From positions 1 through 64,000 of the IMG/VR virus record IMGVR_UViG_3300032334_001923: a stretch of DNA of 64,000 nt, one strand, 5' to 3'. Position 1 is the stretch's first letter; every line of letters begins with the position of its first letter. Source of the stretch: a virus. The translations under genes were made by a program, and so were the position numbers. Shown here piece by piece: positions 5,947 to 60,764 of this stretch. The notes below the pieces were generated by a model. It ran no database searches and had not been told where the DNA came from. It saw only the letters and a list, made by a program, of their open reading frames with translations.

Positions 5947-5976
5947 GAAATCTTTACGTTTTTTATCTCTATAAAA
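5947..5976 (+). promoter_or_regulatory. Putative middle (phage ECF sigma) promoter
   Basis: GAAAT-N17-CTATAAAA. Confidence 0.65.
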
Positions 5977-19429: not shown

Positions 19430-19610
19430 TATTAAATTTAGACTTTGGGACGAGCATAAACTAAACCCTGAATGGATAGAAAACATCCCCTTCTACGAAT
19501 ATCAGATATGGATAGATAAGATTAACGAAGGTATAGAAAGGAAGAATCAGGAAGCTTTAGAAGAAGATGGTAAAAAACAGGTGTTTAGTTTCACTAAACC
19601 TTCGTCCTAA
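19413..19610 (+). CDS. Small baseplate hub/tail assembly protein (cyanophage gp51-like); TTG start or frameshift-fused to the upstream gene
   Basis: LENFFDIKFRLWDEHKL..IENIPFYEYQIW resembles the cyanophage gp51 pattern; overlaps the gp26 stop in the +1 frame. Confidence 0.55.
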   Translation: MENFFDIKFRLWDEHKLNPEWIENIPFYEYQIWIDKINEGIERKNQEALEEDGKKQVFSFTKPSS

Positions 19611-19631
19611 AAATATATACTATGAATTAAA

Positions 19632-21290: not shown

Positions 21291-21325
21291 AATTTTTTTT
21301 ATTTCGATATTTTATCTTATATTTG
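21291..21325 (+). promoter_or_regulatory. Putative early promoter (Bacteroidota housekeeping sigma type)
   Basis: AATTTTTTTTATTTCG-N11-TATATTTG (TAnnTTTG -7 element). Confidence 0.75.
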
Positions 21326-21342
21326 CTTCGTAAAATATATTT

Positions 21343-21954
21343 ATGTCCTATAATGCACATCACGGTCGTACCTTATTCGAAAGCTTTTCTGATATAACCA
21401 CACCTGAATTTATTTCCATTCCCAATTGGAAAATCACAAAAATACAAGAGGGAGGTGCTATGGGTATTTGGGATAAATCAGAGGTTCTTTTTTCTGACGC
21501 TCTCTCAATACACGGGGATGCTAAGTCATTAAAAATGGATTTGATATATTTGGAAATGTCAGACGTATGGGGAAAGAATTCTCATTGTAAAAGAATGCAG
21601 GTTGGCTGTTTAATGGTAAAGAATAAATCTATCATATCGGACGGATATAACGGATCTCCCTCTGGGTTTCCTAATGTTTGCGAGGATCGTGATATGATAA
21701 CTCTTCCTTATGTTCTCCACGCAGAGGCAAATGCAATAACAAAACTAGCTAAAAGTACACAAAGTTCAGATGGATCTACTCTATATGTAACTCTATCACC
21801 ATGCTTTGAATGTTCTAAGCTCATAATACAATCTGGAATAAAAAGAGTAGTATTCTCCCAGGTTTATAGAAATCCCGGATCCATTCCATTTTTAGTTGAA
21901 GCAGGAGTTGAGGTTGTTAGAATATCTAATGTGAAAAATATATTCGTAAATTAA
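21343..21954 (+). CDS. dCMP deaminase (ComEB-like) with N-terminal extension
   Basis: CKRMQVGC, GYNGSP, HAEANAI, TLSPCFEC. Confidence 0.93.
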   Translation: MSYNAHHGRTLFESFSDITTPEFISIPNWKITKIQEGGAMGIWDKSEVLFSDALSIHGDAKSLKMDLIYLEMSDVWGKNSHCKRMQVGCLMVKNKSIISDGYNGSPSGFPNVCEDRDMITLPYVLHAEANAITKLAKSTQSSDGSTLYVTLSPCFECSKLIIQSGIKRVVFSQVYRNPGSIPFLVEAGVEVVRISNVKNIFVN

Positions 21955-21971
21955 ATAATTAAATTAAATAT

Positions 21972-22580
21972 ATGCAATCGAAGGAAAAAAATATTCAAAA
22001 ATTAGCTGAGGATTTTATTGTAAATAAAAGTGATAAGTCTTTTAAAGACCTGTTTGAGAGATTAAAACCAGGAGTGTCTAATCATTGTTTTTTAATTTTA
22101 AAGGACATTGAACTTGCTGAAGACGCTTTTCTTAACACGATGTCCAAGATTTGGACCAAAATAGATCAATATGATTTAGAAAGAGGTAATTTTTCTACGT
22201 GGTGTTATAATATAGCTAGAAACGAATCTCTTTTGCTTATGAAGTCAAGAAAGAGATATTTAAGCCATCAGGATAGCGATTTGGAATTTCTTTCCTCCAA
22301 AAATACTATTGGAAGCTTGGGTGGTTTTTATGTTATTGAAGAGGATCCTAGATACGCATTTTATTCAGAGGAAAATAAAACAGACGAAGTTTACGAATCT
22401 GTTTTGGACGAGATTAGAGCTCTTCCCGAACTTTATAGAGATATAATGATAGATCGAGAAATAAACGGAATGAAATACAAGGATATTGCGGAGAAATACG
22501 ATATTAAAAAGAGATCTATTGCCACAAGGATAAGAAGAGCTAGATGTAGAATCAGGAAGGAGATGGACAAGAAACAATAA
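21972..22580 (+). CDS. ECF-type sigma-70 family RNA polymerase sigma factor
   Basis: Region 2 AEDAFLNT..IW..GNFSTWCYNIARN; region 4 ALPELYR..GMKYKDIAEKY..IATRIRRAR. Confidence 0.9.
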   Translation: MQSKEKNIQKLAEDFIVNKSDKSFKDLFERLKPGVSNHCFLILKDIELAEDAFLNTMSKIWTKIDQYDLERGNFSTWCYNIARNESLLLMKSRKRYLSHQDSDLEFLSSKNTIGSLGGFYVIEEDPRYAFYSEENKTDEVYESVLDEIRALPELYRDIMIDREINGMKYKDIAEKYDIKKRSIATRIRRARCRIRKEMDKKQ

Positions 22581-22600
22581 AACTGGTTGGTACTATAAAA
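22571..22600 (+). promoter_or_regulatory. Putative middle promoter
   Basis: GAAAC-N17-CTATAAAA. Confidence 0.65.
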
Positions 22601-22613
22601 TAATAAACCCAAG

Positions 22614-23030
22614 ATGTTAAGACTTTTTAAAGTTATAAAGGAACTAAAAGTGTACCGGGATTACTTAAGAATCATTAAGAAGGAATCTCAGGAATCACCT
22701 CTTTGGTCTAGAAGAAGACTTAGAGTAGATTTTCTTGGCCGGATTTACACTGTTATCAATCTTCCACCTGAGGTTATATTTTCAAATGATCTTCCTAAGG
22801 AAGCTAGGCCCTCATTCGTAATGAATGACGTCAAGCCAATTAACGAATACCTCAAATCCCTTAATCTTGAGGAAGTATTAACTGTCTATGCAGAACCGGT
22901 AAAAGATACAAGGGAGGAATCATATCTGGTTGTTTATCAATATGTTTTTAGATATCTAACATGGCTTTGGCTTCTCAGATTTTTATTAGAGTTGTCTGCT
23001 ATTATTTTCTGCATCGTAAAATTTTTATAA
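22614..23030 (+). CDS. Hypothetical protein with C-terminal transmembrane segment
   Basis: Ends LTWLWLLRFLLELSAIIFCIVKFL. Confidence 0.6.
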   Translation: MLRLFKVIKELKVYRDYLRIIKKESQESPLWSRRRLRVDFLGRIYTVINLPPEVIFSNDLPKEARPSFVMNDVKPINEYLKSLNLEEVLTVYAEPVKDTREESYLVVYQYVFRYLTWLWLLRFLLELSAIIFCIVKFL

Positions 23031-23033
23031 TTA

Positions 23034-23840
23034 ATGGACGTTAGACTCTTAAGTGCAAAGTCTGAGATAGAGAGAAAGCTAGAGATTTTTAATGATCGCA
23101 AGTTCACCTTTGAGGAGGGACCTCATATTTATAAATATGACGGAAAAAAATTTGACTCTGTAACAACATTCCTAAAAAAATTTAAAGTTCCCTTCGACAG
23201 GGAATATTGGTCTAAAAAAAAGGCAGAGGAACGTGGTGTCGATCAAGCTGTTATCTTGGAAGAATGGAACACAAAGTCTGTTAAGTCAATGGATGTTGGA
23301 ACCTCGGTACATAAGTACATAGAGGATTTCTGGAGCCAAAGAAATCCGGAAATTCCAGAGGATGTTGACGTAAGGGAAAGAGTTGAGAAATTCATAGATT
23401 TTTATAACAAAAAACTCCACGTATTCCATCCATTAAAATCGGAGCTTAGAGTTTTTTCTAAGAGATGGAGATTGTCTGGTACTATAGACCAGCCTCTTCT
23501 ATTTTGGGATGATAAGTTAGATAAGCCATTTTTGGTTATAGGTGACTGGAAAACCAATGGTGAATTCAAAGATGATCTACATCCTAAAGGGAAATATAAA
23601 AAGCTTCTAAGACCTTTCTCCCATCTTTGGGAGAATCATCACAACGAATATTCTATCCAAATAAGTCTTTATCGTCTAATTCTCGAAGAAGAGGCTAACA
23701 TAGAAACCCAAAGTGGATTCCTCTGTCATATCGGTCCAGACGGTCCTCCTAAACTATACCCTGCAAAAGATCTCAGAGAACCACTAAAGGCTTATCTGGA
23801 GGATAATAGAGTTGAATTTGATATTTTTGATATCTCATAG
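23034..23840 (+). CDS. PD-(D/E)xK exonuclease (RecB/Cas4-like family)
   Basis: SVTT, GTSVHKYIE, SGTID, GDWKT, YSIQISLY. Confidence 0.85.
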   Translation: MDVRLLSAKSEIERKLEIFNDRKFTFEEGPHIYKYDGKKFDSVTTFLKKFKVPFDREYWSKKKAEERGVDQAVILEEWNTKSVKSMDVGTSVHKYIEDFWSQRNPEIPEDVDVRERVEKFIDFYNKKLHVFHPLKSELRVFSKRWRLSGTIDQPLLFWDDKLDKPFLVIGDWKTNGEFKDDLHPKGKYKKLLRPFSHLWENHHNEYSIQISLYRLILEEEANIETQSGFLCHIGPDGPPKLYPAKDLREPLKAYLEDNRVEFDIFDIS

Positions 23841-23869
23841 AAACAATTTTGAAGAAATAAACTAAAAAT
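23840..23869 (+). promoter_or_regulatory. Putative middle promoter
   Basis: GAAAC-N17-CTAAAAAT. Confidence 0.6.
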
Positions 23870-23885
23870 ATAAAAAGTATAAAAC

Positions 23886-24422
23886 ATGTCTAAGGAAAAA
23901 ACTACAATGGAAGCTCCAGGAGCATCAGAATCAACGGAATTTGCTACACTAGAGGATGTAAACATCCCAGGTCTTGATATTCCTCAATCTTCGATTGATG
24001 AGGGCAAGATCAAACTTTTAGAGGACGCTATTAAATCTAAAAAAGAGGAGATTAAAAATAAGCTCTATGCGGTCAGTATGACGGACGAGAGTTTTAAAAA
24101 GTTTGGGGATTTCATTGAAAACGAAGCTGAATGGACTGGGACTGAATCTCTAGGAATAAAAGAGGTTCACAAACAAATTCAAAAAATCAAGAAAGAAGGT
24201 GGAGTTAAAAACTCTGTTATTTTCTTGGGAGCTTTGCCTCTAGAAGCTAGCCACTACTTTATCTCTAAATCAAAAGGTAAAGGACTTAAACAGGCTGAAG
24301 AATTCCTATCGATCTATAAGCCTTTAGATCAGGCTATTAGCGATGCTAAAAAGGATGCAATGGAGATTAAGGATCTTGATAAACAATTGGCTGCAGCTAT
24401 GCAGGGAATTGAACTAGCATAA
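23886..24422 (+). CDS. Hypothetical protein
   Basis: 178-aa ORF between a promoter and a terminator. Confidence 0.6.
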   Translation: MSKEKTTMEAPGASESTEFATLEDVNIPGLDIPQSSIDEGKIKLLEDAIKSKKEEIKNKLYAVSMTDESFKKFGDFIENEAEWTGTESLGIKEVHKQIQKIKKEGGVKNSVIFLGALPLEASHYFISKSKGKGLKQAEEFLSIYKPLDQAISDAKKDAMEIKDLDKQLAAAMQGIELA

Positions 24423-24443
24423 TCCATACCTATAAAAACACCT

Positions 24444-24474
24444 AAAAGCTGGATATAAATTGTCCGGCTTTTTT
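24444..24474 (+). terminator. Intrinsic terminator
   Basis: AAAAGCTGGA...TCCGGCTTTT stem followed by T. Confidence 0.75.
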
Positions 24475-24490
24475 GTTGCTCTAAAATATA

Positions 24491-24498
24491 GATATATA
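24491..24498 (+). promoter_or_regulatory. Putative late promoter GATATATA
   Basis: 18 nt before ATG 24517. Confidence 0.7.
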
Positions 24499-24516
24499 GT
24501 TAAAATACATAAAATC

Positions 24517-24828
24517 ATGAAAATACTAGAAAAAATCAAGGCTAATTCAGGGATTATAACCCTTGCACTTTGTGCTATTTTATTTCTAAGACAATGCGGT
24601 ATTAGCAGGGATCAATCTAAGATCACTAAATCTATTAAGTCAATCGAGAGTAGATTGGATTCTATTCCAAACTCGGCAGACCTAGACCGAATGATTAAGA
24701 TAGAGGGACTTAAATCATCTAAAAGAGTTCTGTATGATTGGAATTCTGTCGTGAGAACTGCGGTTAGACCTGATGACAGAATGAATGAATATGATAACGA
24801 GATAGATAAACTAGAAAAAAAGAAGTAA
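24517..24828 (+). CDS. Membrane-anchored coiled-coil protein (start revised to 24517)
   Basis: IITLALCAILFL hydrophobic anchor; ATG downstream of the late promoter. Confidence 0.6.
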   Translation: MKILEKIKANSGIITLALCAILFLRQCGISRDQSKITKSIKSIESRLDSIPNSADLDRMIKIEGLKSSKRVLYDWNSVVRTAVRPDDRMNEYDNEIDKLEKKK

Positions 24829-24847
24829 TTCATTAGAACTGAAATAT

Positions 24848-25669
24848 ATGGAAAAGAAAAATAAACTCGTACACTGGTTCATAATATCGACCTTTGTGAG
24901 CTTATATTTGATAGTTTCGATTATCTCGACTATCCACGTTATACAATTCTTCCAGCTTTCAAATCCTTCGTGGCTTGCTATATCGCTGGCTTTAGCTTTT
25001 GAGGTTGGTGCAGCTGCATCACTTTCTTCTATTATAGTGATGGAAAAGATGAATAAGTTCTTAGTTTGGACCCTCTTCATTCTTCTTACTGCAATGCAGG
25101 CTATGGGTAACACTTATTACGCATATACCCACCTTAACGATTTCCAGGGATGGGTTGAACTGTTTGGACTGGTTGACGAGGACTTGCTATATCAGAAAAG
25201 AATTCTTTCTATAATCAGTGGTGCTATATTACCCTTAGTTTCTTTGGGTTTTATTAAATCCCTAGTTGACTACGTTAAGCCTTCGAATGAAACTATAAAC
25301 GATATAGCAGAAAAACAAGATGAAACACCAGACATCCAGAAGATAGATCTCGGAACATCAGAAACTGAGGATGTTAAAATCTCTGATGATAACCAGCAAA
25401 CCCAAGAAGAGATTTTAGAGGTAAATTCTAATTCATCTGAGTTATCTCAGGAAGAAGACGATTCTACCATTAATGGTGAATCTACAGAAAAAGAGGAGAT
25501 TAAAGAGGAGACAAACGAAGGTCCTATCGATGATACGATATTGGAAATAGGATATAAAGTTGGTCCTCCTGATAACGAAATCCAGCCAGCTAATAGCAAC
25601 AGACCAGATTACATAACGGACGATCCTGTATTAAGACACAAGATGAAATTAAAAAGGGATACTCCTTAA
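24848..25669 (+). CDS. Multi-pass membrane protein with acidic C-terminal tail
   Basis: Four hydrophobic segments in the first ~140 aa, then an E/D-rich region. Confidence 0.65.
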   Translation: MEKKNKLVHWFIISTFVSLYLIVSIISTIHVIQFFQLSNPSWLAISLALAFEVGAAASLSSIIVMEKMNKFLVWTLFILLTAMQAMGNTYYAYTHLNDFQGWVELFGLVDEDLLYQKRILSIISGAILPLVSLGFIKSLVDYVKPSNETINDIAEKQDETPDIQKIDLGTSETEDVKISDDNQQTQEEILEVNSNSSELSQEEDDSTINGESTEKEEIKEETNEGPIDDTILEIGYKVGPPDNEIQPANSNRPDYITDDPVLRHKMKLKRDTP

Positions 25670-25686
25670 AAATAAGATTTAATAAA

Positions 25687-26355
25687 TTGGCAGATCAAGA
25701 TCCAGCACAGATACCTAACTTCGACGGAGGAACCTCAGTAGGAACGGGTAATGATTTTACAGGAGGAGATTCCACATATCCTTTTGCCCCCATAGGACAG
25801 ACTGGTGGGGAATTTCTTACCAACTACACAAACGTTGCCAAGACAAAAGCTGACTTTCCGAGGATAAATGCAACATTTAGAGATTTCAACGAGCCAGCCA
25901 AGGTAAGATTTATAGATCAAAGCTTAAAAGTAACACAGCAGGCAGATACCCTGGATTTCTTAAATCTCGTAGAATTCTTCCATCCGCTGCAAAGTTTTTC
26001 TGAATATGAAAAACAAACCTTTGTTATAGCTCCAACAACTTCTGTGAATTTTGACTCTTCCTCTTTTTCCACCACCAATGGCGAGGTCTCTATGATTATA
26101 GCTAGAGCATACTACCTACCAGAGTCCACTCAGAGAAATCTATTCTGGGATTACAAAGGGGCGGAGAGAAATCTTATGGGTCAGTTCATGGTTTTAACTG
26201 GAGCTGTTAAAGAGGGATACCCTTGGAATGGATGGGATTTAGATCCTTTCTCTACCTACGGTCACACTGGGCCTGCTAATATAGCAGAGGGAGGTCTCAC
26301 TTTCACCAATCCAACAGATATGAACGTGAAACTAACAATAATAGTAGCAAGTTAA
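25687..26355 (+). CDS. Hypothetical (probable virion) protein, paralog of the next gene
   Basis: MGQFMVLTGA..GW..GG.TFTNP.DM..KL.I.VA shared with 26358..26843. Confidence 0.55.
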   Translation: MADQDPAQIPNFDGGTSVGTGNDFTGGDSTYPFAPIGQTGGEFLTNYTNVAKTKADFPRINATFRDFNEPAKVRFIDQSLKVTQQADTLDFLNLVEFFHPLQSFSEYEKQTFVIAPTTSVNFDSSSFSTTNGEVSMIIARAYYLPESTQRNLFWDYKGAERNLMGQFMVLTGAVKEGYPWNGWDLDPFSTYGHTGPANIAEGGLTFTNPTDMNVKLTIIVAS

Positions 26356-26357
26356 TA

Positions 26358-26843
26358 ATGGCAACACAACCAATCATATGTCCAGTACCGGAAGTTCCTG
26401 GATTTGAGTTTTTCAGGGGTAATTTAGTTTTAGATGACGGGACCCAATCATTTCCACCAATCTACATGATGCTTAAAGACATGGTGGAGGACGTAAACGC
26501 TTTTTCAAAAAGCAAGGTGACTGTAAAATCGGGTAATTGCTTCCTTTTAAGTCAGACTGACATCGGTGATAACCTAGGTTATGTGTCTTTTATAGCCGTT
26601 AAAGCAACGTACCCTTCTAGCACTTTAGAATCTAAGAAGTATATGACCTGGGAGTATGAGGGTATCACCTACAATATGGGAACCTTAATGGTTCTTTCAG
26701 GGGCCAGAATTTCTGCTGTAAATTCAACTTACGAGGGATGGCTTTTATCAAAACCTGGCACTTATTCACAGGGAGGAGGAATAGTATTTTGCAATCCTCA
26801 CACTGATATGGACATAAAACTTGAAATATTAGTGGCCAGATGA
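26358..26843 (+). CDS. Hypothetical (probable virion) protein
   Basis: MGTLMVLSGA..GW..GGIVFCNPHTDMDIKLEILVA. Confidence 0.55.
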   Translation: MATQPIICPVPEVPGFEFFRGNLVLDDGTQSFPPIYMMLKDMVEDVNAFSKSKVTVKSGNCFLLSQTDIGDNLGYVSFIAVKATYPSSTLESKKYMTWEYEGITYNMGTLMVLSGARISAVNSTYEGWLLSKPGTYSQGGGIVFCNPHTDMDIKLEILVAR

Positions 26844-26895
26844 TAAAAACCCATAGCATTTTAAATATATACTAGAAAGTTTCCGTCCTTACGAG

Positions 26896-26903
26896 GATAT
26901 ATA
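26896..26903 (+). promoter_or_regulatory. Putative late promoter GATATATA
   Basis: 15 nt before ATG 26919. Confidence 0.7.
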
Positions 26904-26918
26904 ATCAGATTAAAAAAA

Positions 26919-29552
26919 ATGAAAACCATGGAATTCATAAACCAAGTTAAAAAACTAAAAGAGCAAACTAAGTCTCCAGCGGTTAGACAGCTTTGCGAAA
27001 GCTATCTTAGTGGTAGCAGTAAGGTTTCAAAAGAAACCATTGCAGAGGCATTAAACGAACACGAGTCACAGAACGAACCTTTTTCTAAGACCCAGAACTA
27101 TAGAGAAGCAATTAAAGCTGAGGAGCTACAAACAGCTAAGAAATTAGCTGATTCACTAATGGAATCTTGGGGAGGACTCGGAGGCTCAAAAGCTTCAACC
27201 AACTCAGGATCTTATCAGGCAAAAGACGAAAAGAAAGAAAACGGATCTCTGATGGAGAGTCTATCGAATCTTTCGGTGAATGATGAAAGCCTTAACTCTT
27301 TCATGGACGCTCAACAACTTAAAAACTTGGGAGTTATGGAGTCTATCGCAAAGATAAAAGGTTCATCTATCTATGAATATCCAGCGGTTAAAGTTATCTG
27401 TGAAAAATATTCTAATTTAATACAAGTAAAAAGAATCCCAGAATTTGCTTTAGCCCACAACTTTATTGCTGAAGCTTCTTCTTTCAATTGGGATAACACT
27501 GTTAAATCTCTTGTAGAATCTCTTCACAAGAAGATACAAGAAAATAGCAGAGAGATTGAAGTTTCTAAAGTTTTAGAATCTATTAAATCTAGCGGAAGCC
27601 ATTCTTTCTATTCAGAATTAAGTGATACATTAAACACTTGGCTAGTTTCAGAAAGCAAATCATCAGGCGTTCTTGCTAAGAGCATCTCTAAATATTCTTT
27701 CAATCCGGTTGTTAGAAATCTAATTAACTTTTTAAATGTCAACGAAGCTAGCGACACAAGAAAACTTGAAATCCCTTTTAAATCTCAGGGAGAGTCTAGC
27801 GTATCTAGAATCTTCTCTCCTGTTTTAGTTGAAGAAGGTAGAACTGTTATTGCTATCGGTAAAGATCTTTTCGAAGCTACTGGTGAGGAGTTTTCGAGAA
27901 TGAGCAAAACTGAAGTTAACGGAGTTTCTCAAGATTTCTTAGCGTTAGTATCTGCTGTTAATTCAAAAGGTGTTAAAGTTAACGAGAATGGAATATTCGT
28001 TCAACTTGGTAAAAAATCTGTTAGACTTATCGAAGAAGGAAATGATATTTCTGTTTATCTGGATAAATCTAAGCTTACGTTCAGAACACTAGGAGAACTT
28101 GCTAAGATGTTAAATCTTGAAGGTGGAGCTTATTTCGGAATGAACGAAAGTCAAGCGATAGGAAATGTTATCACTCTATATAAAGGATACAACGATGTTG
28201 TTGAACTCGATTTTGCTAAATCTATAGTTTCTAACATTTATGAAGGTGCTAGTGTTAACCTTATTAAATGGGGAGGAAAGATCTACCTTCAAAGAATAAA
28301 TGAAGGAATGAGAGAGAATTCAATCTTCAAGGTTAACGGATCTCAAGCTGTTAAAATGGTTAAGGACTTCTTAAGATATGACATATCTGAAGGTCTTACT
28401 GATTTCTTAGACGGTGAGAACAAGGTTAAATCTATTATGATCAACGACAGAACAAAAGTTCTTGAGAATATTACTAGAGTAGAATCTGAGATTTCTAAAG
28501 TAGAGGGCCTAATGGAAAACAACCCTCTATATGCAGAATCAAAGCAAATGAAAGCTGCTCACTCTATTTTAAACAATGAACTTACAGTTCTAAAAGAAAA
28601 ATGGAATCAAATAAATCTAGAACTAGAAAGAATCGAAATCAATACATCTGCTTTGGATTCAGATCTTTTAGAAGATGAAAAATTCAATATAGGATCTTAC
28701 ATAAAAGTTAAAGAATCTGGAGAAACTGGAAAAATAATTTCTATGGACGGATCTTCAGGAAGATATACAGTACTTCTTGACAATGGAAGGGCATCAGAAT
28801 TTCTAGTAAATGAGATTCAAGACATAGAAGAGGCTTTATCCCAAGCAGCTGAAAGAAATGAGGAGTCTTCAGATGAGGATGGTGAAGAGGAAGTAAAAGA
28901 AGCTAACAACTTCAACAAGTCTCAACTTTCAGAAGAGGAGCAAAAGAAAATCTTAAAGACTCTTGCTGATAATCACTCATTTTCTAAAGCACCAAAAGGG
29001 GTTCATGATAAAATAGAAATGGAAATGGATTCAGTTCATGGCTACAATGTATCGATGAACGAGGGATCTAAAAAAGAAGGGGCATTATCTAAAGCACCAG
29101 GAGATAGCAAAATAGGATCGGGAAAGGACGGTAATAAAAATAATTTAGCTAAAGCTCCAGGAAACGATAAAATGCAAAAATCTAAAGTTGAAGGTGAAGA
29201 TTTGTTAGATAACAAAGCACCAGAGACTAAGAAGAAAACTGAATTCGACAGTCAAGATGCAGAAGGAAAAAAATACGATATTGGATATAATTTAAGAGAA
29301 GGTGAAAAAAACACCTTAGCTGACGCTCCAGAAAGTGGAAAACAAGCTCCTGAAACAAAAAGAACAACTGACACAAATTTAGTTGAAGCCCCTGAAAAAG
29401 GAACTAACGCTAAAGAAACTAGTGCTACTGCTACAATCGCCAAAAAACAAAACTTGGCTCAAGCACCTGGTAAAGAAGGAGATATTGGTTACGAAGCAAA
29501 CAAAAAAATCGGATATAATCTTTCTGAGTCTGACGAAGTAAAAAAAAAGTAA
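26919..29552 (+). CDS. Large putative prohead-core/internal head protein with C-terminal LxxAP repeats; possibly extended to 29710 by a -1 frameshift
   Basis: Many L/M-x-E-S motifs, KOW/SH3-like segment FNIGSYIKVKESGETGKII, repeated L(S/A)KAP and GYNLxE. Confidence 0.5.
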   Translation: MKTMEFINQVKKLKEQTKSPAVRQLCESYLSGSSKVSKETIAEALNEHESQNEPFSKTQNYREAIKAEELQTAKKLADSLMESWGGLGGSKASTNSGSYQAKDEKKENGSLMESLSNLSVNDESLNSFMDAQQLKNLGVMESIAKIKGSSIYEYPAVKVICEKYSNLIQVKRIPEFALAHNFIAEASSFNWDNTVKSLVESLHKKIQENSREIEVSKVLESIKSSGSHSFYSELSDTLNTWLVSESKSSGVLAKSISKYSFNPVVRNLINFLNVNEASDTRKLEIPFKSQGESSVSRIFSPVLVEEGRTVIAIGKDLFEATGEEFSRMSKTEVNGVSQDFLALVSAVNSKGVKVNENGIFVQLGKKSVRLIEEGNDISVYLDKSKLTFRTLGELAKMLNLEGGAYFGMNESQAIGNVITLYKGYNDVVELDFAKSIVSNIYEGASVNLIKWGGKIYLQRINEGMRENSIFKVNGSQAVKMVKDFLRYDISEGLTDFLDGENKVKSIMINDRTKVLENITRVESEISKVEGLMENNPLYAESKQMKAAHSILNNELTVLKEKWNQINLELERIEINTSALDSDLLEDEKFNIGSYIKVKESGETGKIISMDGSSGRYTVLLDNGRASEFLVNEIQDIEEALSQAAERNEESSDEDGEEEVKEANNFNKSQLSEEEQKKILKTLADNHSFSKAPKGVHDKIEMEMDSVHGYNVSMNEGSKKEGALSKAPGDSKIGSGKDGNKNNLAKAPGNDKMQKSKVEGEDLLDNKAPETKKKTEFDSQDAEGKKYDIGYNLREGEKNTLADAPESGKQAPETKRTTDTNLVEAPEKGTNAKETSATATIAKKQNLAQAPGKEGDIGYEANKKIGYNLSESDEVKKK

Positions 29553-29647
29553 GTAAAAACTTTTACTTTGCCCCGCAAGCTGAAAATCAGAATGCACAGG
29601 GTAAAAAATTCGTAGATCCTTTAGAGGGAAGACTTAGTAAAGCCCCA
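28974..29647 (+). repeat. Degenerate coding repeats L-x-x-A-P / GYN-L-x-E
   Basis: FSKAP, LSKAP, LAKAP, NKAP, LADAP, LVEAP, LAQAP, plus LSKAP in the -1 frame extension. Confidence 0.7.
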
Positions 29648-29727
29648 ACAGGAGATGGTAAAAAAAGTGCAAACTTAGACTCCGAGGAGCCGGAAGAAGA
29701 CAAAGAATAAAAATAAACTTCTAATAG

Positions 29728-29757
29728 AGAGAATGCGATAGCATTCTCTTTTTTTTT
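29728..29757 (+). terminator. Intrinsic terminator
   Basis: AGAGAATGC-GATA-GCATTCTCT followed by T8. Confidence 0.85.
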
Positions 29758-29787
29758 GAAATATTTCACGTTATTCTGACTAAAATA
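29758..29787 (+). promoter_or_regulatory. Putative middle promoter driving gp55
   Basis: GAAAT-N17-CTAAAATA. Confidence 0.65.
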
Positions 29788-29815: not shown

Positions 29816-30175
29816 ATGGCAAAAGATTATGTAAAAAACAGCGACCTAATGGCGGCTGTAATAGAATCCAAAAAACAAGGAAAATTAACACCGGATACTA
29901 TAGCTATGTTTACCCTTATGATTCAGGGTATCTCAAAGAAAATGGCTTATAAAGATCCGGAGGATAAGGAGGATTGCATGGCTTTTGCAATGGAAGATCT
30001 CTGTAAATACTGGGACAGATTTAATCCCGAAAAATCAAACAATCCCTTTGCTTATTTCACCCAGATTGCAAAGAATGGATTTGCTAAAGGCTGGAAGAAA
30101 TTACATCCACCTAAGAGTCCTAAAACTATACCGTTCAGTTACATCACGGGTGATGATAATTCATATAACGTTTAG
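29816..30175 (+). CDS. gp55: Late transcription sigma factor (T4 gp55-like)
   Basis: YVKNSDL, FNPEKSNNPFAYFTQIAKNGF. Confidence 0.9.
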   Translation: MAKDYVKNSDLMAAVIESKKQGKLTPDTIAMFTLMIQGISKKMAYKDPEDKEDCMAFAMEDLCKYWDRFNPEKSNNPFAYFTQIAKNGFAKGWKKLHPPKSPKTIPFSYITGDDNSYNV

Positions 30176-30668: not shown

Positions 30669-31273
30669 TGAAATACTCAGAATCAGCTTTAAAATATAAA
30701 AAGGAGTTCAAAAGTGTCTCGGATCTAGTTTCGGGAACAGATGAGACGTTTAAGAAAAAATACTTCAGAGGAGGAAAATCTGAAAAGGTATTCTCCTCCC
30801 CCTTTATACCAGGTCAAATATATTCGTTCTATTATAACACAGATTCTGAATTAAGCGAAAAAAGACCTTTCATAAACAGAAATCCTATAGTTTTATGTAC
30901 TGACACGTTCCGTAAGAAGGAATACGGAACAGTTCTTAAAGGAATAGATCTGGTAACAGTCCCTCCTCCTTATAAGATTCAGATTCTTTCTAAAATTTAC
31001 GACAGCTTTTCTAATACTATAGAGAGAAACGAGGAGGCTTCTAAAAACGGAGGAGCTATATCACCCATTCAATTGAAAGATAGTCTTTTAGAGAGAGCAT
31101 TAAATGGAACCGGATATAAAAAATCGGTTTTTGGATTCAAAGCTTCGTTTATGCAGGAGATAAAAATTCTGGACCTGGAGGATTGGTATAAGATCCCGTA
31201 TTTGAGGTACTCAGAGATAGAGGGCTTGGATCTCCAGGGGATATATAGCGAGTATGAATCGAAATTAATTTAA
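30668..31273 (+). CDS. gp2: DNA end protector (T4 gp2-like)
   Basis: FIPGQIYSFYY motif; adjacent to gp4 as in T4-like phages. Confidence 0.55.
   Translation: MKYSESALKYKKEFKSVSDLVSGTDETFKKKYFRGGKSEKVFSSPFIPGQIYSFYYNTDSELSEKRPFINRNPIVLCTDTFRKKEYGTVLKGIDLVTVPPPYKIQILSKIYDSFSNTIERNEEASKNGGAISPIQLKDSLLERALNGTGYKKSVFGFKASFMQEIKILDLEDWYKIPYLRYSEIEGLDLQGIYSEYESKLI
31240..31247 (+). promoter_or_regulatory. Putative late promoter for the portal genes
   Basis: GATATATA inside the 3' end of the upstream gene, 59 nt before ATG 31307. Confidence 0.6.
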
Positions 31274-31306
31274 AAAAAGGACTAAAATAATTCAAAGAGA
31301 AGTTAA

Positions 31307-32920
31307 ATGGCTGGTTTTGTAAATAATAATAACCCCTCAGAATCTCCGGTAATACAGAGAATAAGAGAATCCGTAAAGAGGCTTAGTACCTTTGGGATGA
31401 AGTATGATGACATGGTCATCAGAAACTCCCAGGCGGTTGGGGTTACCGAGGCTGCTTTCCTAAACAAAAATAAGTCAAATGTAGAAGATGAAAGCATGCT
31501 TTGGACATTGGCCAAACAGGATATAACCACAAAGCAATTTGTCTCTTATTTTGATAAAGATTATAAGGGAAAAAGAGATTATCTTAGAAAATTTTCTCTC
31601 AATCCTGAGATAGAGTGGGTGCTTGATACAATCTGTGACGAGTCCGTTTCGTATGACCCAGCAAACTTTTTTGCATACCCTGACTTTCTAGACCTTACTG
31701 ATATAAACGAAAAGATAAAGGACGAGCTTTACGAGACTTATAAGAAAATATACGATTTCTGGGGATTCAATGATGATATCTCTGCATGGCAGTATTTTAG
31801 ACAGTTTCTTGTTGATGGGTTTTTATGCTTTGAGATAATCTATGATAATTCGGGAAAAGAAATAGTCGGATTTAAGGAGCTTGATCCTATAACAATAGTT
31901 CCTAGTGTTGAAAAACAAATAGATGGATCTTTCTTAAATACTTGGACTCAATTTCCACAAGATCCCAGAAAGAGAAGGATACTCTATGATCCTCAGGTGA
32001 TCTATATTTCTTACGCTAAAGGTAATTCAATCTCGAGAATAAGCTACATTGAGAGACTTATTAGACCTTACAATATTCTTAGAATTATAGAATATACCAG
32101 GGTTATATGGTCTGTTATGAATGCTTCTTTTAGACTTAAGATGACAGTTCCTATAGGAACTAAATCACAACAGAAAGGGCTTCAAACTCTGGGCGAGCTT
32201 ATGAGTATCTACAAGGAGGATGTTCAGTTAAATGATGATACCGGAGAACTTCTTATTGACGGAAGACCTAAAATACAGTTCTATAAGAATTATCTGATGC
32301 CTTCTGGCGTTAACGGAACTCCTACTATCGAGCCTTTAAATACCGAAGGACCTAACCTTAATGACAATCAGCCACTAAGTTATTTCTTTGATAAGTTTGT
32401 ACTTGAATCTAAAATACCTGCATCTAGATTTCATCAGCCAGACGGAGGAAACACTTCTGCTTATGCTAATGCTGCTGAGGGTTTAGATAAGGAAGAGATT
32501 AGGTTTTCTAAATTTATTTCCAGACTTAGATCTATATTCCAGGAAATCATGACCAAACCTCTTTGGGTTCAGATGGTTAAAAAACATCCCGAATTAGAAA
32601 AAGACTTTATGTTCAAGAGTCAGTTAGGTCTTGATTATTTTTCTGACAATCCCTTTAAAATAAATCAGGAGATTGACATAATAAATAAAAAGAAAGAGGC
32701 TGTTTCTTCGATGGCGGGATTAATGGGAGACGGAGAAAAAACATATTTCTCTGTTCCTTTCTTAATTGAAACATTCCTTGGATTATCTAAACAGGATATC
32801 AAGGCGAATAAAGAGGCTATAGAGAGAAGAGAAAAAAAGAAAGAAAAAGAGAGTAAAGAAGGCGAGGGAGGAGAAGAAGGTGGCGAAGAAGGAGAAGGAG
32901 GAGAAGCAGTAACATTATAA
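31307..32920 (+). CDS. gp20: Portal protein, copy 1
   Basis: PEIEWVLDTICDE, FRQFLVDG, SYIERLIRPYNILRIIE, YKNYLMP, FDKFVLESKIPASR, FSKFISRLRSIF. Confidence 0.92.
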   Translation: MAGFVNNNNPSESPVIQRIRESVKRLSTFGMKYDDMVIRNSQAVGVTEAAFLNKNKSNVEDESMLWTLAKQDITTKQFVSYFDKDYKGKRDYLRKFSLNPEIEWVLDTICDESVSYDPANFFAYPDFLDLTDINEKIKDELYETYKKIYDFWGFNDDISAWQYFRQFLVDGFLCFEIIYDNSGKEIVGFKELDPITIVPSVEKQIDGSFLNTWTQFPQDPRKRRILYDPQVIYISYAKGNSISRISYIERLIRPYNILRIIEYTRVIWSVMNASFRLKMTVPIGTKSQQKGLQTLGELMSIYKEDVQLNDDTGELLIDGRPKIQFYKNYLMPSGVNGTPTIEPLNTEGPNLNDNQPLSYFFDKFVLESKIPASRFHQPDGGNTSAYANAAEGLDKEEIRFSKFISRLRSIFQEIMTKPLWVQMVKKHPELEKDFMFKSQLGLDYFSDNPFKINQEIDIINKKKEAVSSMAGLMGDGEKTYFSVPFLIETFLGLSKQDIKANKEAIERREKKKEKESKEGEGGEEGGEEGEGGEAVTL

Positions 32921-32930
32921 AAAAATTGAG

Positions 32931-34556
32931 ATGGCAGGATTTTTAGACGCATTTAAACCAAATCAGTCCGCACTAGGAAACATAATTCGAAACCTTGGAA
33001 AAATATCCAAGTTTGGAATGGAGTATGATGATATGGTTGTGAGGAACTCTCAAGCTATTGGTAAAACAGAGTCAGCTTTCTTTAATCAGCAAGGAACCGG
33101 ATTCACGGAAAATGACGCTTTTTACTGGACCCTATCATATCAAGACACTAGAGTTAGAAAATACATAGCTTACTTTGATAAAGATTATATCGAAAAAAGA
33201 AATTTTCTTAGAAAATTTTCTCTTAACGGTGAGATAGAGTTTATCATAGATACTATTACCGACGAATCTATTTCTTATGATGATAGAAATTTTTTCGCCA
33301 GACCTTCTTTTATAAATCTTCAGGATCTCAAAGAAAGAACTAAAGATAAAATAGAGGAGAATTTCAATAGACTCTATAATGTGTTTGGCTTCCAGAATTC
33401 TATATCAGCATGGCAGCTATTCAAGCAATTCTTAGTTGATGGATTTTTAGCATTTGAAATAATCTATGACAATAAAGGCAAGGAAATAATCGGTTTTAAA
33501 GAACTGGATGCAACCTCACTTCAGCCTGCTGTTGAGAAAGTTGGTGAAAATGAATATAAACAGTTTTGGATTCAATATCCAAAAAATCCTCAAATGACTA
33601 GAAAGCTTACCAATGAGCAAGTCATTTATATCTCATATGCTAAGGGTAATTCTGTATCAAGAGTAAGCTATCTGGAGAGATTGGTTAGATCTTATAACAT
33701 TTTAAGAATAATGGAAAACTCAAGAGTTATCTGGAATGTTATGAATGCCTCCTATAGGTTAAAGTTTATAATCCCGACGGGAACCCAATCCCCACAGAAA
33801 GCAATGCAGACTTTGGGCCAGCTTATGTCTCATTATAAAGAGGAAATATCTCTTAATGACACATCGGGGGAATTAACGGTAAACGGTAAGCCTAAGGTTC
33901 AATTTTATAAGAATTATTTATTTCCTGAACAAAATGGACAATCCCCTCAGGTTGAGTCTTTAAATCCAAGTGGTCCGGATTTTAACGTAATGGAGAACGT
34001 TTTATACTTCTTCAATAAACTTAAAATGGACTCTAAAATACCTTATGCTCGATTTGCATCAAGAGGAGCTACTCCTATAAATTATCAGATAAGTATAGAT
34101 GCTCTGGAAAGAGATGAAATTAGATTTGAGAAATTTTTAAGAAGGCTTAGATCTGTTTTCCAGGAGATATTGGTTAAACCTCTATACATTCAGATGTGTT
34201 TAGATTACCCTGAACTTGCTAAAGATAGAAGCTTTAAAGTTAATCTTGGTCTTCAATTCTACAAGGATAGTCAATTCGAAGAAATCGTTGAACTTTCAAA
34301 TTACAAAAAAAGAACTGAGTTTATAGCAGGACTTTTAGAATTAAAAATGAAAGTTGGCGAAGAGGAAAAAACATACTTCGATAATGATTTCTTGATTCAA
34401 AGGTTCTTAGGATTAACCCCTGATCAGTTTAAGCTGAATGAGGAGTATAAAAAAAGAGAAGAGAAAGAAGCAGAAAAAGCATCTAAGGAAGAAGGTGGAG
34501 GAGAAGGTGAAGAGGGAGGCGAAGGTGAAGGAGGCGCAGAGGCAGTAACTTTATAA
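32931..34556 (+). CDS. gp20: Portal protein, copy 2
   Basis: GEIEFIIDTITDE, FKQFLVDG, SYLERLVRSYNILRIME, YKNYLFP, KIPYAR, FEKFLRRLRSVF. Confidence 0.92.
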   Translation: MAGFLDAFKPNQSALGNIIRNLGKISKFGMEYDDMVVRNSQAIGKTESAFFNQQGTGFTENDAFYWTLSYQDTRVRKYIAYFDKDYIEKRNFLRKFSLNGEIEFIIDTITDESISYDDRNFFARPSFINLQDLKERTKDKIEENFNRLYNVFGFQNSISAWQLFKQFLVDGFLAFEIIYDNKGKEIIGFKELDATSLQPAVEKVGENEYKQFWIQYPKNPQMTRKLTNEQVIYISYAKGNSVSRVSYLERLVRSYNILRIMENSRVIWNVMNASYRLKFIIPTGTQSPQKAMQTLGQLMSHYKEEISLNDTSGELTVNGKPKVQFYKNYLFPEQNGQSPQVESLNPSGPDFNVMENVLYFFNKLKMDSKIPYARFASRGATPINYQISIDALERDEIRFEKFLRRLRSVFQEILVKPLYIQMCLDYPELAKDRSFKVNLGLQFYKDSQFEEIVELSNYKKRTEFIAGLLELKMKVGEEEKTYFDNDFLIQRFLGLTPDQFKLNEEYKKREEKEAEKASKEEGGGEGEEGGEGEGGAEAVTL

Positions 34557-35626: not shown

Positions 35627-35659
35627 TTTTTTTTCATCCGAGATTATTTCTTACATTTG
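35625..35659 (+). promoter_or_regulatory. Putative early promoter (Bacteroidota type)
   Basis: AATTTTTTTTCATCCG-N11-TACATTTG. Confidence 0.75.
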
Positions 35660-35677: not shown

Positions 35678-37009
35678 ATGATTCAGGAAATAAGAGTATT
35701 AAGAAAAATCGAATCCCTTACAGGCGAAGGATCTCAAAAATCAAAGCAGAATTTAATTAATGAGTCTTTAACCCCAGAGATGGAGTATATCTTAGATGTC
35801 TGTTTTAATCCCTTTGTCACAACTAAACTCCATAAAATATCCTTTCGGGAAACCCCAAAGGAAGGTAATCCTAATCTCTTCAATGATTTTAAAACATTGA
35901 TAGAGGATCTTAAAAAAGCTCCAGCAGCAAACGATCTTTTAAGAGAAAGAGCTCAGACAATTATATCCTATCGTTTATCTGAGGATGATCAAGAGGATAC
36001 AGATCTTAGAAAAAATCTAATGAAGGTTTTGACCAAAAGAATGAATATAGGCATCGGTGCTAAACTTATAAACAAAGCAGTTGGAAAAGAGCTTATCCCT
36101 GATCCATCACTTATGTTGGCAACTGATGATCACCAAACAATAGAGGCTTGGAATAAGATTTACTGTGAAGAAAAATATGACGGGGTCAGAGTAATTGCCC
36201 TTTATAAAAACGGAGAGTTTTCATATTTTACTAGAGCCTTTAATGAGCTTGATTCTTCATGTTTTCCTAAGATTACTTTTGATCTAAAAACATGTATGAT
36301 AAACTCAGGACTAAAGGGTGACTGGTTTTTTGATGGTGAATTAACAGATCTTAATAGAAAATCTGTTAGTGGAAAGGTTACTCAAATACTTAAAGGAACT
36401 GTTGATGAGAAAATAGAGACTGGCATGCTATTTAATGTATTCGACTTTGAAGAAGCAGTAACTTTAGAAAAAGGAAGTGGAGTAATAGAATATAGAACAC
36501 GCAGAAGCACATTAGAAAATGTACTTAAACATCTTGATGAAAATTCCCCTGTTAAATTGGCTCAGATGTGGGAATTGGAAGATTCCACTGCAGTTAGTCT
36601 TGTTTACAAGGAAATAGTAAAAATAGGAGGCGAGGGCGTTATATGTAAAAATGACTCAGTTTATGAATGCAAAAGATCTAAGTCTTGGGTTAAATTCAAA
36701 GAAGTTAACGAGTGCGATCTTGAAGTAACTGGTTGGTATCCAGGAGAGGGCAAAAGAGAAGGAATGATAGGAGGATTTATGATGACAGACTCTTCTAAAA
36801 CTATGACGGTTAGGGTTGGTGCAGGATTCAGCGATTTGGATCTACAGACCCTTAGCAAAGATCCAGATTCTCATATAGGTAAAATTGCTGCTGTTCAATA
36901 CAACGTGACTATCACGGATAAGCACGGGAATAGATCTTTATTTTTACCTCGCTTTGTAGATATAAGAAATGATAAAACTCAAGCAGACGATCTTTCCTCT
37001 CTTTTTTAG
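35678..37009 (+). CDS. gp30: ATP-dependent DNA ligase
   Basis: EEKYDGVR, FDGEL, EGVICK, WVKFK, LFLPRF. Confidence 0.96.
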   Translation: MIQEIRVLRKIESLTGEGSQKSKQNLINESLTPEMEYILDVCFNPFVTTKLHKISFRETPKEGNPNLFNDFKTLIEDLKKAPAANDLLRERAQTIISYRLSEDDQEDTDLRKNLMKVLTKRMNIGIGAKLINKAVGKELIPDPSLMLATDDHQTIEAWNKIYCEEKYDGVRVIALYKNGEFSYFTRAFNELDSSCFPKITFDLKTCMINSGLKGDWFFDGELTDLNRKSVSGKVTQILKGTVDEKIETGMLFNVFDFEEAVTLEKGSGVIEYRTRRSTLENVLKHLDENSPVKLAQMWELEDSTAVSLVYKEIVKIGGEGVICKNDSVYECKRSKSWVKFKEVNECDLEVTGWYPGEGKREGMIGGFMMTDSSKTMTVRVGAGFSDLDLQTLSKDPDSHIGKIAAVQYNVTITDKHGNRSLFLPRFVDIRNDKTQADDLSSLF

Positions 37010-37038
37010 AAACAACCAATAAAATAATCTCTAGAAAT
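37009..37038 (+). promoter_or_regulatory. Putative middle promoter
   Basis: GAAAC-N17-CTAGAAAT. Confidence 0.65.
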
Positions 37039-37042
37039 TAAT

Positions 37043-37987
37043 ATGATACAAGAACTTTTAACCGAAAAACTCAGACCTAAAGAGCTGAGACATATGATAC
37101 TCCCGTCGAGGATATCTAATCTTTTTAGTCAAGGATTAGGACACAATGTTCTTCTAAGCGGACCTCCAGGATGCGGAAAAACAACCCTTGCTAAAATCCT
37201 TGCTGCACCCTTCCCTAGTATATTTATAAACGTTTCTGACGAAAGCTCTGTTGAAACAATCAGGGTTAAGATTAACGATTTCTGTTCCACCATATCTGTT
37301 TTGGATAATAAATCGTCTAAGAAAATAGTTATTTTAGACGAGTTTGACGGGGCTTCGGATCAATTCTATAAAGCACTAAGAGGTACGATAGAAAAGTTCG
37401 CAGGCAACACTAGATTCATTGCTACGTGCAATTATATCAACAAGGTTCCTGATGCAATCCAGAGCAGATTTGAGTTAGTTGATTTTAATCCAGTTAGCTC
37501 GGAAGAGGAAGATTTACTAAAGGACGAATGGAACAGGAGGATAAAACTAATATTAGGAAAACTCAGTATTCAAATAGATGATGATTCCCTTAATGAATTC
37601 CAGAAATCCTACTACCCAGATTTTAGATCAGCTTTAAATAAAGTTCAAAGCTGGATGCTTGAAGGGGTTAAGGAAGTCGATAGCAACAAGATTAAAGAAT
37701 TAGGCTGGTCGTACGAGAACTTATATAATTTGATTATCACATCTAAAGACCCTGTTAAAAACTACGAAGAGATCGTCGGTGAATATCAAGGTAAGGTTGA
37801 TGAGGTTATGTCAGCTTTAGGTGATGAGTTTATAAAATGGATCATTAAAAACAAGCCAGCACTTAAAAAGATAATTCCTGGAGTTATTGTTTTAGTGGCA
37901 GATCACCAATCACAGAGAACACAAGTAATAGATCCTATGGTCTCCCTACTTTCTCTAATATTTCAGATACAAAAACTTGTTGACTAA
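37043..37987 (+). CDS. gp44: Clamp loader AAA+ subunit (gp44/RFC-small)
   Basis: EKLRP, GPPGCGKTT, ILDEFD, FIATCNY, IQSRF. Confidence 0.95.
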   Translation: MIQELLTEKLRPKELRHMILPSRISNLFSQGLGHNVLLSGPPGCGKTTLAKILAAPFPSIFINVSDESSVETIRVKINDFCSTISVLDNKSSKKIVILDEFDGASDQFYKALRGTIEKFAGNTRFIATCNYINKVPDAIQSRFELVDFNPVSSEEEDLLKDEWNRRIKLILGKLSIQIDDDSLNEFQKSYYPDFRSALNKVQSWMLEGVKEVDSNKIKELGWSYENLYNLIITSKDPVKNYEEIVGEYQGKVDEVMSALGDEFIKWIIKNKPALKKIIPGVIVLVADHQSQRTQVIDPMVSLLSLIFQIQKLVD

Positions 37988-39700: not shown

Positions 39701-39701
39701 A

Positions 39702-40121
39702 ATGCAACTTTTCGATATAGTAAAATCAATATTTTCAAAAAAACCAAAAGATTGGGATGCTGTTGGTGCAATAGATAAATCTAGGAATTTCTTTATGATT
39801 AACAGAATCATGAGTATACAATTCCCAATACAAGCTAATCAATTTAACAGATTAAAGGTTATTCCTGCCCCTGTAGTTGACTGGTGGCACGATACCCTTT
39901 CAATAAAGTTTACCAAATCGCCCACGTGGATTTACACTAAGACCAAGAAAAAAGAATCAGAAAAATCAGAATGTATTAAAATTTCTGAGGGTGTAGAGGA
40001 TTTTATTAGAGATAGATATAGGGTATCCAAGAGAGATCTAGAAGACCTTAAAAAATTCTATCCTTCAAAATATGCCTCTTGGGTCAAGGATGTATCGGAA
40101 CAATTAGGACTTCAAAAGTAG
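39702..40121 (+). CDS. Clamp loader small subunit (gp62-like)
   Basis: LFDIVKSI..FFMINRIMS..WIYTKTKK resembles gp62; same operon as gp44. Confidence 0.5.
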   Translation: MQLFDIVKSIFSKKPKDWDAVGAIDKSRNFFMINRIMSIQFPIQANQFNRLKVIPAPVVDWWHDTLSIKFTKSPTWIYTKTKKKESEKSECIKISEGVEDFIRDRYRVSKRDLEDLKKFYPSKYASWVKDVSEQLGLQK

Positions 40122-42137: not shown

Positions 42138-42169
42138 TTTTTTTATTTCGGGAATACTGTTTACTTTTG
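42136..42169 (+). promoter_or_regulatory. Putative early promoter (Bacteroidota type)
   Basis: AATTTTTTTATTTCG-N11-TACTTTTG. Confidence 0.75.
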
Positions 42170-55157: not shown

Positions 55158-55187
55158 GAAATCTTTTACTTTTGGAGTAGTATAAAA
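55158..55187 (+). promoter_or_regulatory. Putative middle promoter
   Basis: GAAAT-N17-GTATAAAA. Confidence 0.6.
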
Positions 55188-60466: not shown

Positions 60467-60496
60467 GAAACATTTCATCTTTCCTCTCCTAGAATT
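60467..60496 (+). promoter_or_regulatory. Putative middle promoter
   Basis: GAAAC-N17-CTAGAATT. Confidence 0.65.
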
Positions 60497-60500
60497 TAGA

Positions 60501-60764
60501 ATGGAGTTAAAGGAGGATTTCCACTTAGATTACGGTCAGACCACAGTTCTTAAAAATTTTAAGGATCCTAAGATAGTGGAGTTTTCTAGATATCAGGATA
60601 AAGAGATTCTGACAAAATCCTACAACTCAATAAAGAAAACAAGCTCGGAAACGCCAAGTATTATTTTAAATGCTCCGTTTAATTTCACGGGCATACATTT
60701 AAAAAATATCGAATATGAACTTGAGATAAAAGGAACAAAAGAGACGAAAAAGAGTAAAAAATAA
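60501..60764 (+). CDS. Hypothetical protein
   Basis: 87-aa ORF directly after the middle promoter. Confidence 0.55.
   Translation: MELKEDFHLDYGQTTVLKNFKDPKIVEFSRYQDKEILTKSYNSIKKTSSETPSIILNAPFNFTGIHLKNIEYELEIKGTKETKKSKK

Follow-up and report, generated by a model that had tools for sequence, protein, structure and literature searches.

We analysed a window of 64,000 nucleotides (nt), the first 64 kb of the 127,287-base IMG/VR virus record IMGVR_UViG_3300032334_001923 (completeness estimate 46%), and found in it three classes of promoter-like motif, termed early (E), middle (M) and late (L), together with the genes of two phage sigma factors, one of the extracytoplasmic function (ECF) type and one homologous to gp55 of phage T4. 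The most economical reading of this arrangement, which we regard as lying slightly on the probable side, is a chain that passes from the host sigma factor to the ECF sigma factor and from there to the gp55 homologue. Host RNA polymerase would read an E promoter and express an operon of dCMP deaminase and the 202-amino-acid (aa) ECF sigma factor; host core polymerase carrying this sigma factor would then, most likely, read the two-box M promoters, one of which, directly behind a terminator, would turn on the gp55-like gene, whose product would in turn read the single-box GATATATA promoters of head, neck, tail and fibre genes. At the level of motifs this wiring is in place, the sigma operon standing behind an E element and the gp55-like gene behind an M site, and both arrangements are conserved. 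An initial annotation of this DNA had proposed such an SPO1-like cascade running a T4-like virion gene set. Head, protease, portal, neck and tail-fibre genes were indeed identified in the window, and all checks at the sequence level favoured the cascade, while the assignment of sigma factors to promoter classes, that of the ECF sigma factor to its motif included, and the order in time are what we infer from directly observed motifs, conservation, gene identities and gene order.

The two-box middle motif

All eight sites that had been listed for the middle class match the pattern G(A/G)AA(C/T)-N17-(C/G)TAnAA on the + strand, at the coordinates given in Table 1. The window holds 12 matches to the pattern versus 2.82 expected (standard deviation 1.5), a number that none of 100 dinucleotide shuffles reached, and the whole 127-kb record holds 15 forward and 3 reverse matches, compared with 3 and 2 for a reversed-pattern control. 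The exact spacing of 17 nt that had been claimed held up when spacers from N10 to N25 were scanned, as 15 forward hits were found at N17 and 1 to 7 at every other spacing. Eight of the 15 forward matches in the record end in non-coding DNA, which makes up 3.8% of the record and where 0.6 would be expected. Enrichment upstream of genes was also seen genome-wide, with 8 copies in the 80-nt upstream windows of this record versus 0.16 once these windows had been dinucleotide-shuffled. The whole genome of a 270,629-base relative, G003, which is about 99% complete by estimate and collinear with the window, was used as an independent but related test, and its 80-nt upstream windows hold 10 copies versus 0.40 in shuffles.

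Because the pattern had been chosen after seeing the data, we added a prior-free enumeration of dyads made up of a 5-mer, a gap of N8-24 and a gapped 5-mer. GAAAC-N18-TA.AA, which is the same motif counted from the C, took first place among the 68,324 dyads of this record, and in G003 it was the first dyad outside the early class (8 observed, 0.61 expected). Across the whole genomes of five complete relatives the degenerate pattern shows a strand bias and a weak excess over the reversed control, and only its intergenic or upstream counts are informative. A position weight matrix trained on relatives was set aside as evidence, its sites having been chosen by a loose regular expression that makes it circular in the core positions. 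A scan for canonical sigma70 promoters gave no enrichment (38 found, 33 expected).

Conservation was followed in the 110 nt upstream of orthologues of four genes, at up to 80 related loci. At three M sites, namely those at the sigma stop codon, before the gene at 23886 and before the gp55-like gene, MAFFT alignments show both boxes to be at least 90% identical in 31-51 distinct relatives, and the spacer columns at the same sites show 30-60% identity, so that the 17 nt between the boxes vary freely. Conserved boxes on either side of a free spacer are the footprint expected of a two-box promoter, and GAAAC/T-N17-(C/G)TAnAA very probably marks a promoter class. Upstream of the gp55-like gene, the order of hairpin, T-run and GAAAT-N17-CTAnAA is kept in 26 of 31 distinct sequences. 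For the most part the M sites precede replication, nuclease, nucleotide, kinase/AsnB and glycosyltransferase genes, and the identities first given to the genes in question (ECF-type sigma factor, gp55-like protein, clamp loader, nucleases, kinase/AsnB and glycosyltransferases) were right.

Some details of the sites needed correction. Their description as intergenic holds overall, though not for the site at 22571, whose -35 box falls inside the last codons of the sigma gene, and the site at 55158 is intergenic only if its gene starts at ATG 55200, a start that is backed by the G003 orthologue. At 23840 and 37009 the first G of the site also closes a TAG stop codon. All eight listed sites are real, but two are missing from the list, one at 60732-60759 that is kept in G003 and an N16 copy at 31261-31287. 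From the TAnAA box to the ATG there are only 6 nt at 37009-37045 and at 60467-60503, and only 5 nt at the G003 site at 36589; with distances this short, transcripts from the 37009 and 60467 sites would be leaderless or nearly so.

Two phage sigma factors and the early and late classes

The 202-aa protein carries Sigma70_r2 at residues 27-95 and Sigma70_r4_2 at residues 142-191, with no r3 (Pfam). It scores 65.2 bits against TIGR02937 (cut-off 42.9), with Sig70_bacteroi1 as the best subfamily, and its best PDB match is SigW 5wuq (1.5e-11); the nearest named families are the Bacteroidota ECF sigma factors and SigW. Small, with regions 2 and 4 only and neither region 1.1 nor region 3, it has the composition of ECF group 4, and judged by these domains it is a true ECF-type sigma factor. 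In IMG/VR the gene has 213 relatives, many of them on complete genomes of 270-434 kb. Lak phages and the uncultured huge phage LR756500 supply the only matches to the protein among deposited phages, all of them distant (28-33% identity). Copies of GAAAC-N17/18-TAnAA near gene starts in the 40-kb stretch of LR756500 around the sigma homologue were too common at 22% GC and were left unused.

We would assign the M class to this sigma factor because its sigma2 and sigma4 domains suit a motif of two boxes and because an AAC-type -35 box is typical of ECF promoters. These promoters share AAC in the -35 box, and SigW reads tGAAACnTTTt with spacers of 14-17 nt (PMC5758882). On this comparison, it is reasonably likely that the phage ECF sigma factor is the protein that reads the M motif.

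The sigma operon had been thought to lie behind a host-type early promoter, and a TAnnTTTG element does stand at 21293-21325, where it is kept in 25 distinct relatives. The E consensus is ATTTTTTT-n4-CCG-n12-TAnnTTTG, drawn from 20 sites in this record and G003, about 17 of them in G003, that all have the -7 box; most of the G003 copies lie at 130-265 kb, in a region missing from this record. In Bacteroidetes the -7 box of sigmaA is TANNTTTG (TAnnTTTG) and is nearly invariant (PMC6847099). Bacteroidota housekeeping promoters thus have the same -7 box, and the E sites should be readable by host RNA polymerase without any phage protein. The E elements also have a rigid upstream part, in which 7-8 T are followed by 4 nt, CCG(A/G), about 12 nt and then TAnnTTTG. 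Their -33 region is formed by the T-run and CCG, and the published -33 box of Bacteroidetes is TTTG (PMC6847099). The upstream part could be a phage-specific variant of a strong promoter.

The gp55-like protein consists of sigma region 2 only. Its sole PDB match is T4 gp55 7d7c_F (1e-4), and it aligns to residues 9-120 of T4 gp55. The homologue ends at residue 119 and has no clamp-binding tail; the C-terminal third of T4 gp55 is without a counterpart in it, and the open frames of the relatives measure 121-166 aa. As had been annotated, the gene lies behind the M site at 29758, which directly follows an intrinsic terminator.

The L class consists of one box only, GATATATA, which was counted 30 times in the record and twice on the other strand. 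Of these copies, 22 end in non-coding DNA (1.1 expected), and in upstream windows the box was counted 18 times versus 1.4 in shuffles in this record and 41 times versus 3.9 in G003. When 67 L sites from this record and G003 were aligned on the box, no information was seen anywhere upstream. The class therefore has the form of a T4-type late promoter, a single box at the -10 position without a -35 element, and GATATATA differs from the T4 box TATAAATA. L boxes precede fibre, neck, protease, head and baseplate-region genes. One box with nothing conserved upstream fits a protein that has sigma2 only, as in T4, and it is for this reason that we hold it quite likely that GATATATA is read by the gp55 homologue. 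Before an 877-aa gene two L boxes stand in tandem (Table 1), 32 nt apart and with a conserved AAAGTTTC between them, and this arrangement precedes the gene in nearly all relatives.

Directly 3' of the sigma gene lies a gene for a 138-aa membrane protein, which has a C-terminal transmembrane tail in all 47 of the 47 distinct orthologues and a confident AlphaFold2 model (predicted local distance difference test, pLDDT, 85). No anti-sigma domain was found in it, and there was no fold or family match in Pfam, PHROG, NCBIfam, Atlas or PDB. In its location the gene corresponds to an ECF anti-sigma gene, and a middle-type site stands before it; that the protein acts as an anti-sigma factor is a guess.

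Alternative readers and the strength of the proposed relay

Several observations weigh against the ECF sigma factor as reader of the M class and against the relay that depends on it. All relatives were gathered via the sigma gene, so the co-occurrence of sigma factor and motif among them is built in and proves nothing, and the -35 box is identical in all relatives fetched, so that no co-change of the sigma4 helix and the -35 box links the two. The A/T-rich -10 box of the M class, CTAnAA, departs from the CGT type known from the best-studied ECF sigma factors. The gp55-like gene has no M site before it, or a displaced one, in the five most divergent relatives, two of which have a copy further upstream, and some M-type sites stand before virion-related genes, namely the portal paralogues and, within the gp55 operon, a head-closure gene. 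In the relative G001 the degenerate pattern, counted over the whole genome, barely exceeds the control (29 versus 22). About half of the genome is missing from the record. Finally, a third sigma factor of about 300 aa, RpoD/RpoS-like, is present in four of the five complete relatives and could read one of the classes. Because of this extra sigma factor and the missing half of the genome, the organisation is less tidy than three tiers.

In phage T4 the early genes are transcribed with sigma70, the middle genes with MotA and AsiA, and the late genes with gp55, gp33 and gp45. A search for motA and asiA, suggested as a check in the initial annotation, gave no match to PF09114 or PF09010 in this record or in five complete relatives, T4 itself giving 3e-63 and 2e-43. 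This result bears on the alternative that survives best, although we think it unlikely: the M sites would be promoters read by a host ECF or other alternative sigma factor, or by sigmaA retargeted by an unrecognised phage protein in an appropriation like that of T4, and the phage ECF sigma factor would have another job, such as redirecting host genes. Bacteroidota carry many ECF sigma factors, and since the closest families of the phage protein are those of Bacteroidota, host sigma factors with a similar -35 preference may exist, but host ECF sigma factors are normally kept inactive by anti-sigma factors. The tie between the phage sigma factor and the motif is drawn from sequence. Against the host reading, the phage sigma factor is conserved in all 213 detected relatives and has a motif site at its own stop codon. 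A retargeted sigmaA lacks its T4 agents here, MotA and AsiA not having been found, and CTAnAA is unlike the host -7 box TAnnTTTG, which makes region 2 of sigmaA an unlikely reader (PMC6847099).

It is also improbable, and somewhat more so, that the ECF sigma factor acts at late promoters, replacing either activation by gp33 and gp45 or gp55 itself, and that the two-box motif is read by something else. In its favour, such a role has been proposed in the literature for PhiM9 and P10VF (PMC4621102). No match to gp33 (phrog_254) was found in this record, G001 or G004, with 0.015 in G003 and 1.6e-33 in the T4 control, an absence that is unproven because gp33 is small and fast-evolving. The C-terminal domain of gp45 (PF09116) had no match in this record, G003 or G001 (T4 control 4e-53); this phage may have a divergent sliding clamp, which is possible because the clamp loader is present. 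The gp55 homologue, moreover, is short and without the C-terminal part of T4 gp55, and there is a likeness to the T4 late box in some M -10 boxes, for instance TATAAAAT at 22590. Unlike the T4 late box, however, the M -10 box is free at its third position (T, A or G), and the GATATATA class is without the conserved -35 box on which ECF sigma factors depend (PMC5758882). The distribution of the two classes also speaks against a late role, as the two-box motif stands mostly before non-virion genes and GATATATA before virion genes.

Lower still in probability is that the M motif is read by the RpoD/RpoS-like sigma factor, encoded in the half of the genome that is missing from this 46% complete record. 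In G001 the gene for this protein lies behind an early-type element (T-run, CCG, TAccTTTG), yet a sigma factor of the primary type would more naturally read the TAnnTTTG class. The protein was not found in G003 or in the 127 kb of this record. G003 has only the ECF and gp55-like sigma factors, and yet it keeps the M sites and all three motif classes, which argues that the third sigma factor is not needed for the middle class. That the motif is instead a binding site for a DNA-binding regulator or an RNA-level signal at gene starts is very improbable. The evidence is one of sequence, and at two sites (37009 and 60467) a start codon follows after only 6 nt, so that the mRNAs would have almost no leader. 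But the motif has several marks of a promoter, namely two short boxes with a free spacer of fixed length (17 nt), strict orientation with the genes, a place directly after intrinsic terminators in two cases (29726 and 55122) and a -35 box of the ECF type.

We therefore keep to the relay from host sigma factor through ECF sigma factor to gp55 homologue. A fuller version of it can be put forward tentatively, although we think it more doubtful than not. A captured ECF sigma factor would have replaced the T4 middle mode and would control gp55, the membrane neighbour would be a delayed anti-sigma factor that ends the middle phase, gp55 would be minimal and free of coupling to gp33 and the clamp, and hundreds of huge T4-like phages of Bacteroidota world-wide would share this arrangement.

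Genome context and comparison with known systems

The gene content of the window is that of a distant T4-like phage, with a major head protein, a prohead protease, two portal-like genes and neck proteins, as well as a clamp loader, a ligase, exonucleases and tail fibres. Nearly all genes of the 127-kb record are on the + strand. No near-identical DNA was found for the window among deposited phages. The window covers the left part of the genome of a huge T4-like phage with a Bacteroidota host. A-rich stretches, rather than Shine-Dalgarno sequences, stand before the start codons throughout the window, which fits a host of this phylum (PMC6847099). Two adjacent full-length genes, at 31307-32920 and 32931-34556, both match the portal family phrog_213 (5e-56 and 1e-64). 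The simple open reading frame (ORF) caller left long "intergenic" gaps that look like coding sequence, at 19430-19631, 39701-40078 and 59087-59307 in the window and at 71228-71687, 72093-72420 and 113535-113748 in the record. They probably contain genes with unusual starts or small genes that were missed, and several late boxes scored as internal stand before such gaps.

Table 1. Coordinates of promoter elements, sigma genes and neighbouring features, in the window unless a relative is named
Feature	Position	Strand	Remarks
E element: T-run, TTCG, then TATATTTG	21293..21325	+	17 nt before dCMP deaminase start
E element	35627..35659	+	before DNA ligase gene
E element	42138..42169	+	before 3'-5' exonuclease gene
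dCMP deaminase, first gene of sigma operon	21343..21954	+	PF00383 8.9e-24; phrog_174 2e-50
ECF-type (group 4) sigma factor, 202 aa	21972..22580	+	Pfam, TIGR02937 and PDB match
Tail-anchored membrane protein, 138 aa	22614..23030	+	directly 3' of sigma gene; conserved; function unknown
PD-(D/E)XK exonuclease	23034..23840	+	phrog_298 5.6e-32
M site	5947..5974	+	before genes for a 97-aa protein and two glycosyltransferases; G003 orthologue 6241
M site 1, GAAAC-N17-CTATAA	22571..22598	+	overlaps sigma stop codon, 15 nt before next gene
M site 2, GAAAC-N17-CTAAAA	23840..23867	+	before five genes of unknown function (23886-26843)
M site 3, GAAAT-N17-CTAAAA	29758..29785	+	30 nt before gp55-like gene
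M-like site, N16	31261..31287	+	just after L box at 31240, before two portal paralogues
M site	37009..37036	+	6 nt before clamp-loader start; G003 counterpart 36589
M site, GGAAC-N17-GTAGAA	41187..41214	+	before endonuclease gene
M site	55158..55185	+	right after terminator, before kinase-like gene (ATG 55200) and AsnB; G003 54674
M site	60467..60494	+	6 nt before 87-aa gene; G003 60040
M site omitted from first list	60732..60759	+	9 nt before 224-aa gene, then NUDIX gene; G003 60110
Intrinsic terminator: 11-bp stem, then T-run	29726..29757	+	hairpin and T-run in nearly all relatives
Terminator before M site 55158	55122-55150
gp55-like late sigma factor, 119 aa, sigma region 2 only	29816..30175	+	phrog_234 1.3e-16; PF04542 26.6 bits
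Two tandem L boxes, AATATATA and GATATATA	26864..26903	+	before 877-aa gene; kept in 34 distinct relatives
Third sigma factor in relatives	G004:6573-7490; G001:311094-311990; G005 near 70444; G002 near 204914

The principle of a phage sigma cascade is classical and has been known since SPO1, so that the gain lies in a variant and in a key for annotation rather than in a new kind of mechanism. Since most T4-like phages outside the T-even group are without MotA and AsiA, the timing of their middle genes is poorly understood. The clade described here offers a regulatory map that can be read from sequence, with three sharply defined promoter classes and two phage sigma factors, in phages that are abundant, uncultured and huge and that infect the Bacteroidota, whose transcription signals are unusual for a phylum of bacteria. 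If the reading is correct, the promoter class could predict the time of expression of many unknown genes in these genomes, and the 28-nt M promoter together with the 202-aa sigma factor could serve as a compact orthogonal expression switch for Bacteroidota.

The present system is like T4 in its virion and replication gene sets, in having a gp55 homologue and a single-box, A/T-rich late promoter, and in the apparent placing of the late sigma factor under pre-late control. It is unlike T4 in that MotA, AsiA, gp33 and the gp45 C-terminal domain were not found, in its late box (GATATATA, not TATAAATA) and in the size of gp55 (119 versus 185 aa). Like the SigW promoters of Bacillus subtilis, the M sites have a GAAAC -35 box, often with T-rich spacer bases next to it, and a spacing near the upper end of 14-17 nt (PMC5758882). 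They differ from SigW promoters in a -10 box that is CTAnAA and not CGTA and in the lack of an autoregulatory site upstream of the sigma operon, and the phage differs from SigW systems in that no recognisable anti-sigma domain was found.

Among phage cascades, that of SPO1 leads from host sigmaA to gp28 and on to gp33/gp34 (PMC13401047, PMC9429907). As in SPO1, the host polymerase would be kept and passed along a chain of sigma factors, each sigma gene standing behind a promoter of the preceding class, which is here judged from motifs. Unlike SPO1, the middle factor would be a canonical ECF-type protein and the late factor a homologue of T4 gp55, and the virion is of a different type. In phiEco32 the phage sigma factor gp36 drives the middle and late genes (PMC12276001). 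This protein is likewise a small two-domain phage sigma factor, made early, that sends the host core polymerase to later promoters, but there a single sigma factor serves both middle and late genes, the promoter is AATGTA at -11.5, a cofactor, gp79, takes part, and the phage is an Escherichia coli podovirus without gp55. The T4-superfamily rhizophages PhiM9, P10VF and Atu_ph04 have both gp55 and an RpoE-type sigma factor and are without gp33 (PMC4621102, PMC6630229), and the authors of the PhiM9 study suggested a late role for the RpoE-type sigma factor (PMC4621102). These phages differ in infecting Alphaproteobacteria and in having a sigma factor like the alphaproteobacterial RpoE, and no promoter classes or cascade have been mapped in them. 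With phiEco32 (PMC12276001) and the phages with gp55 and an RpoE-type sigma factor (PMC4621102, PMC6630229) as precedents, the novelty first claimed for the present arrangement was overstated. What appears to be new is the combination of a mapped two-box promoter class that can be assigned to an ECF sigma factor, the place of this class before gp55, and the fact that it is conserved throughout a large, uncultured clade of huge Bacteroidota phages.

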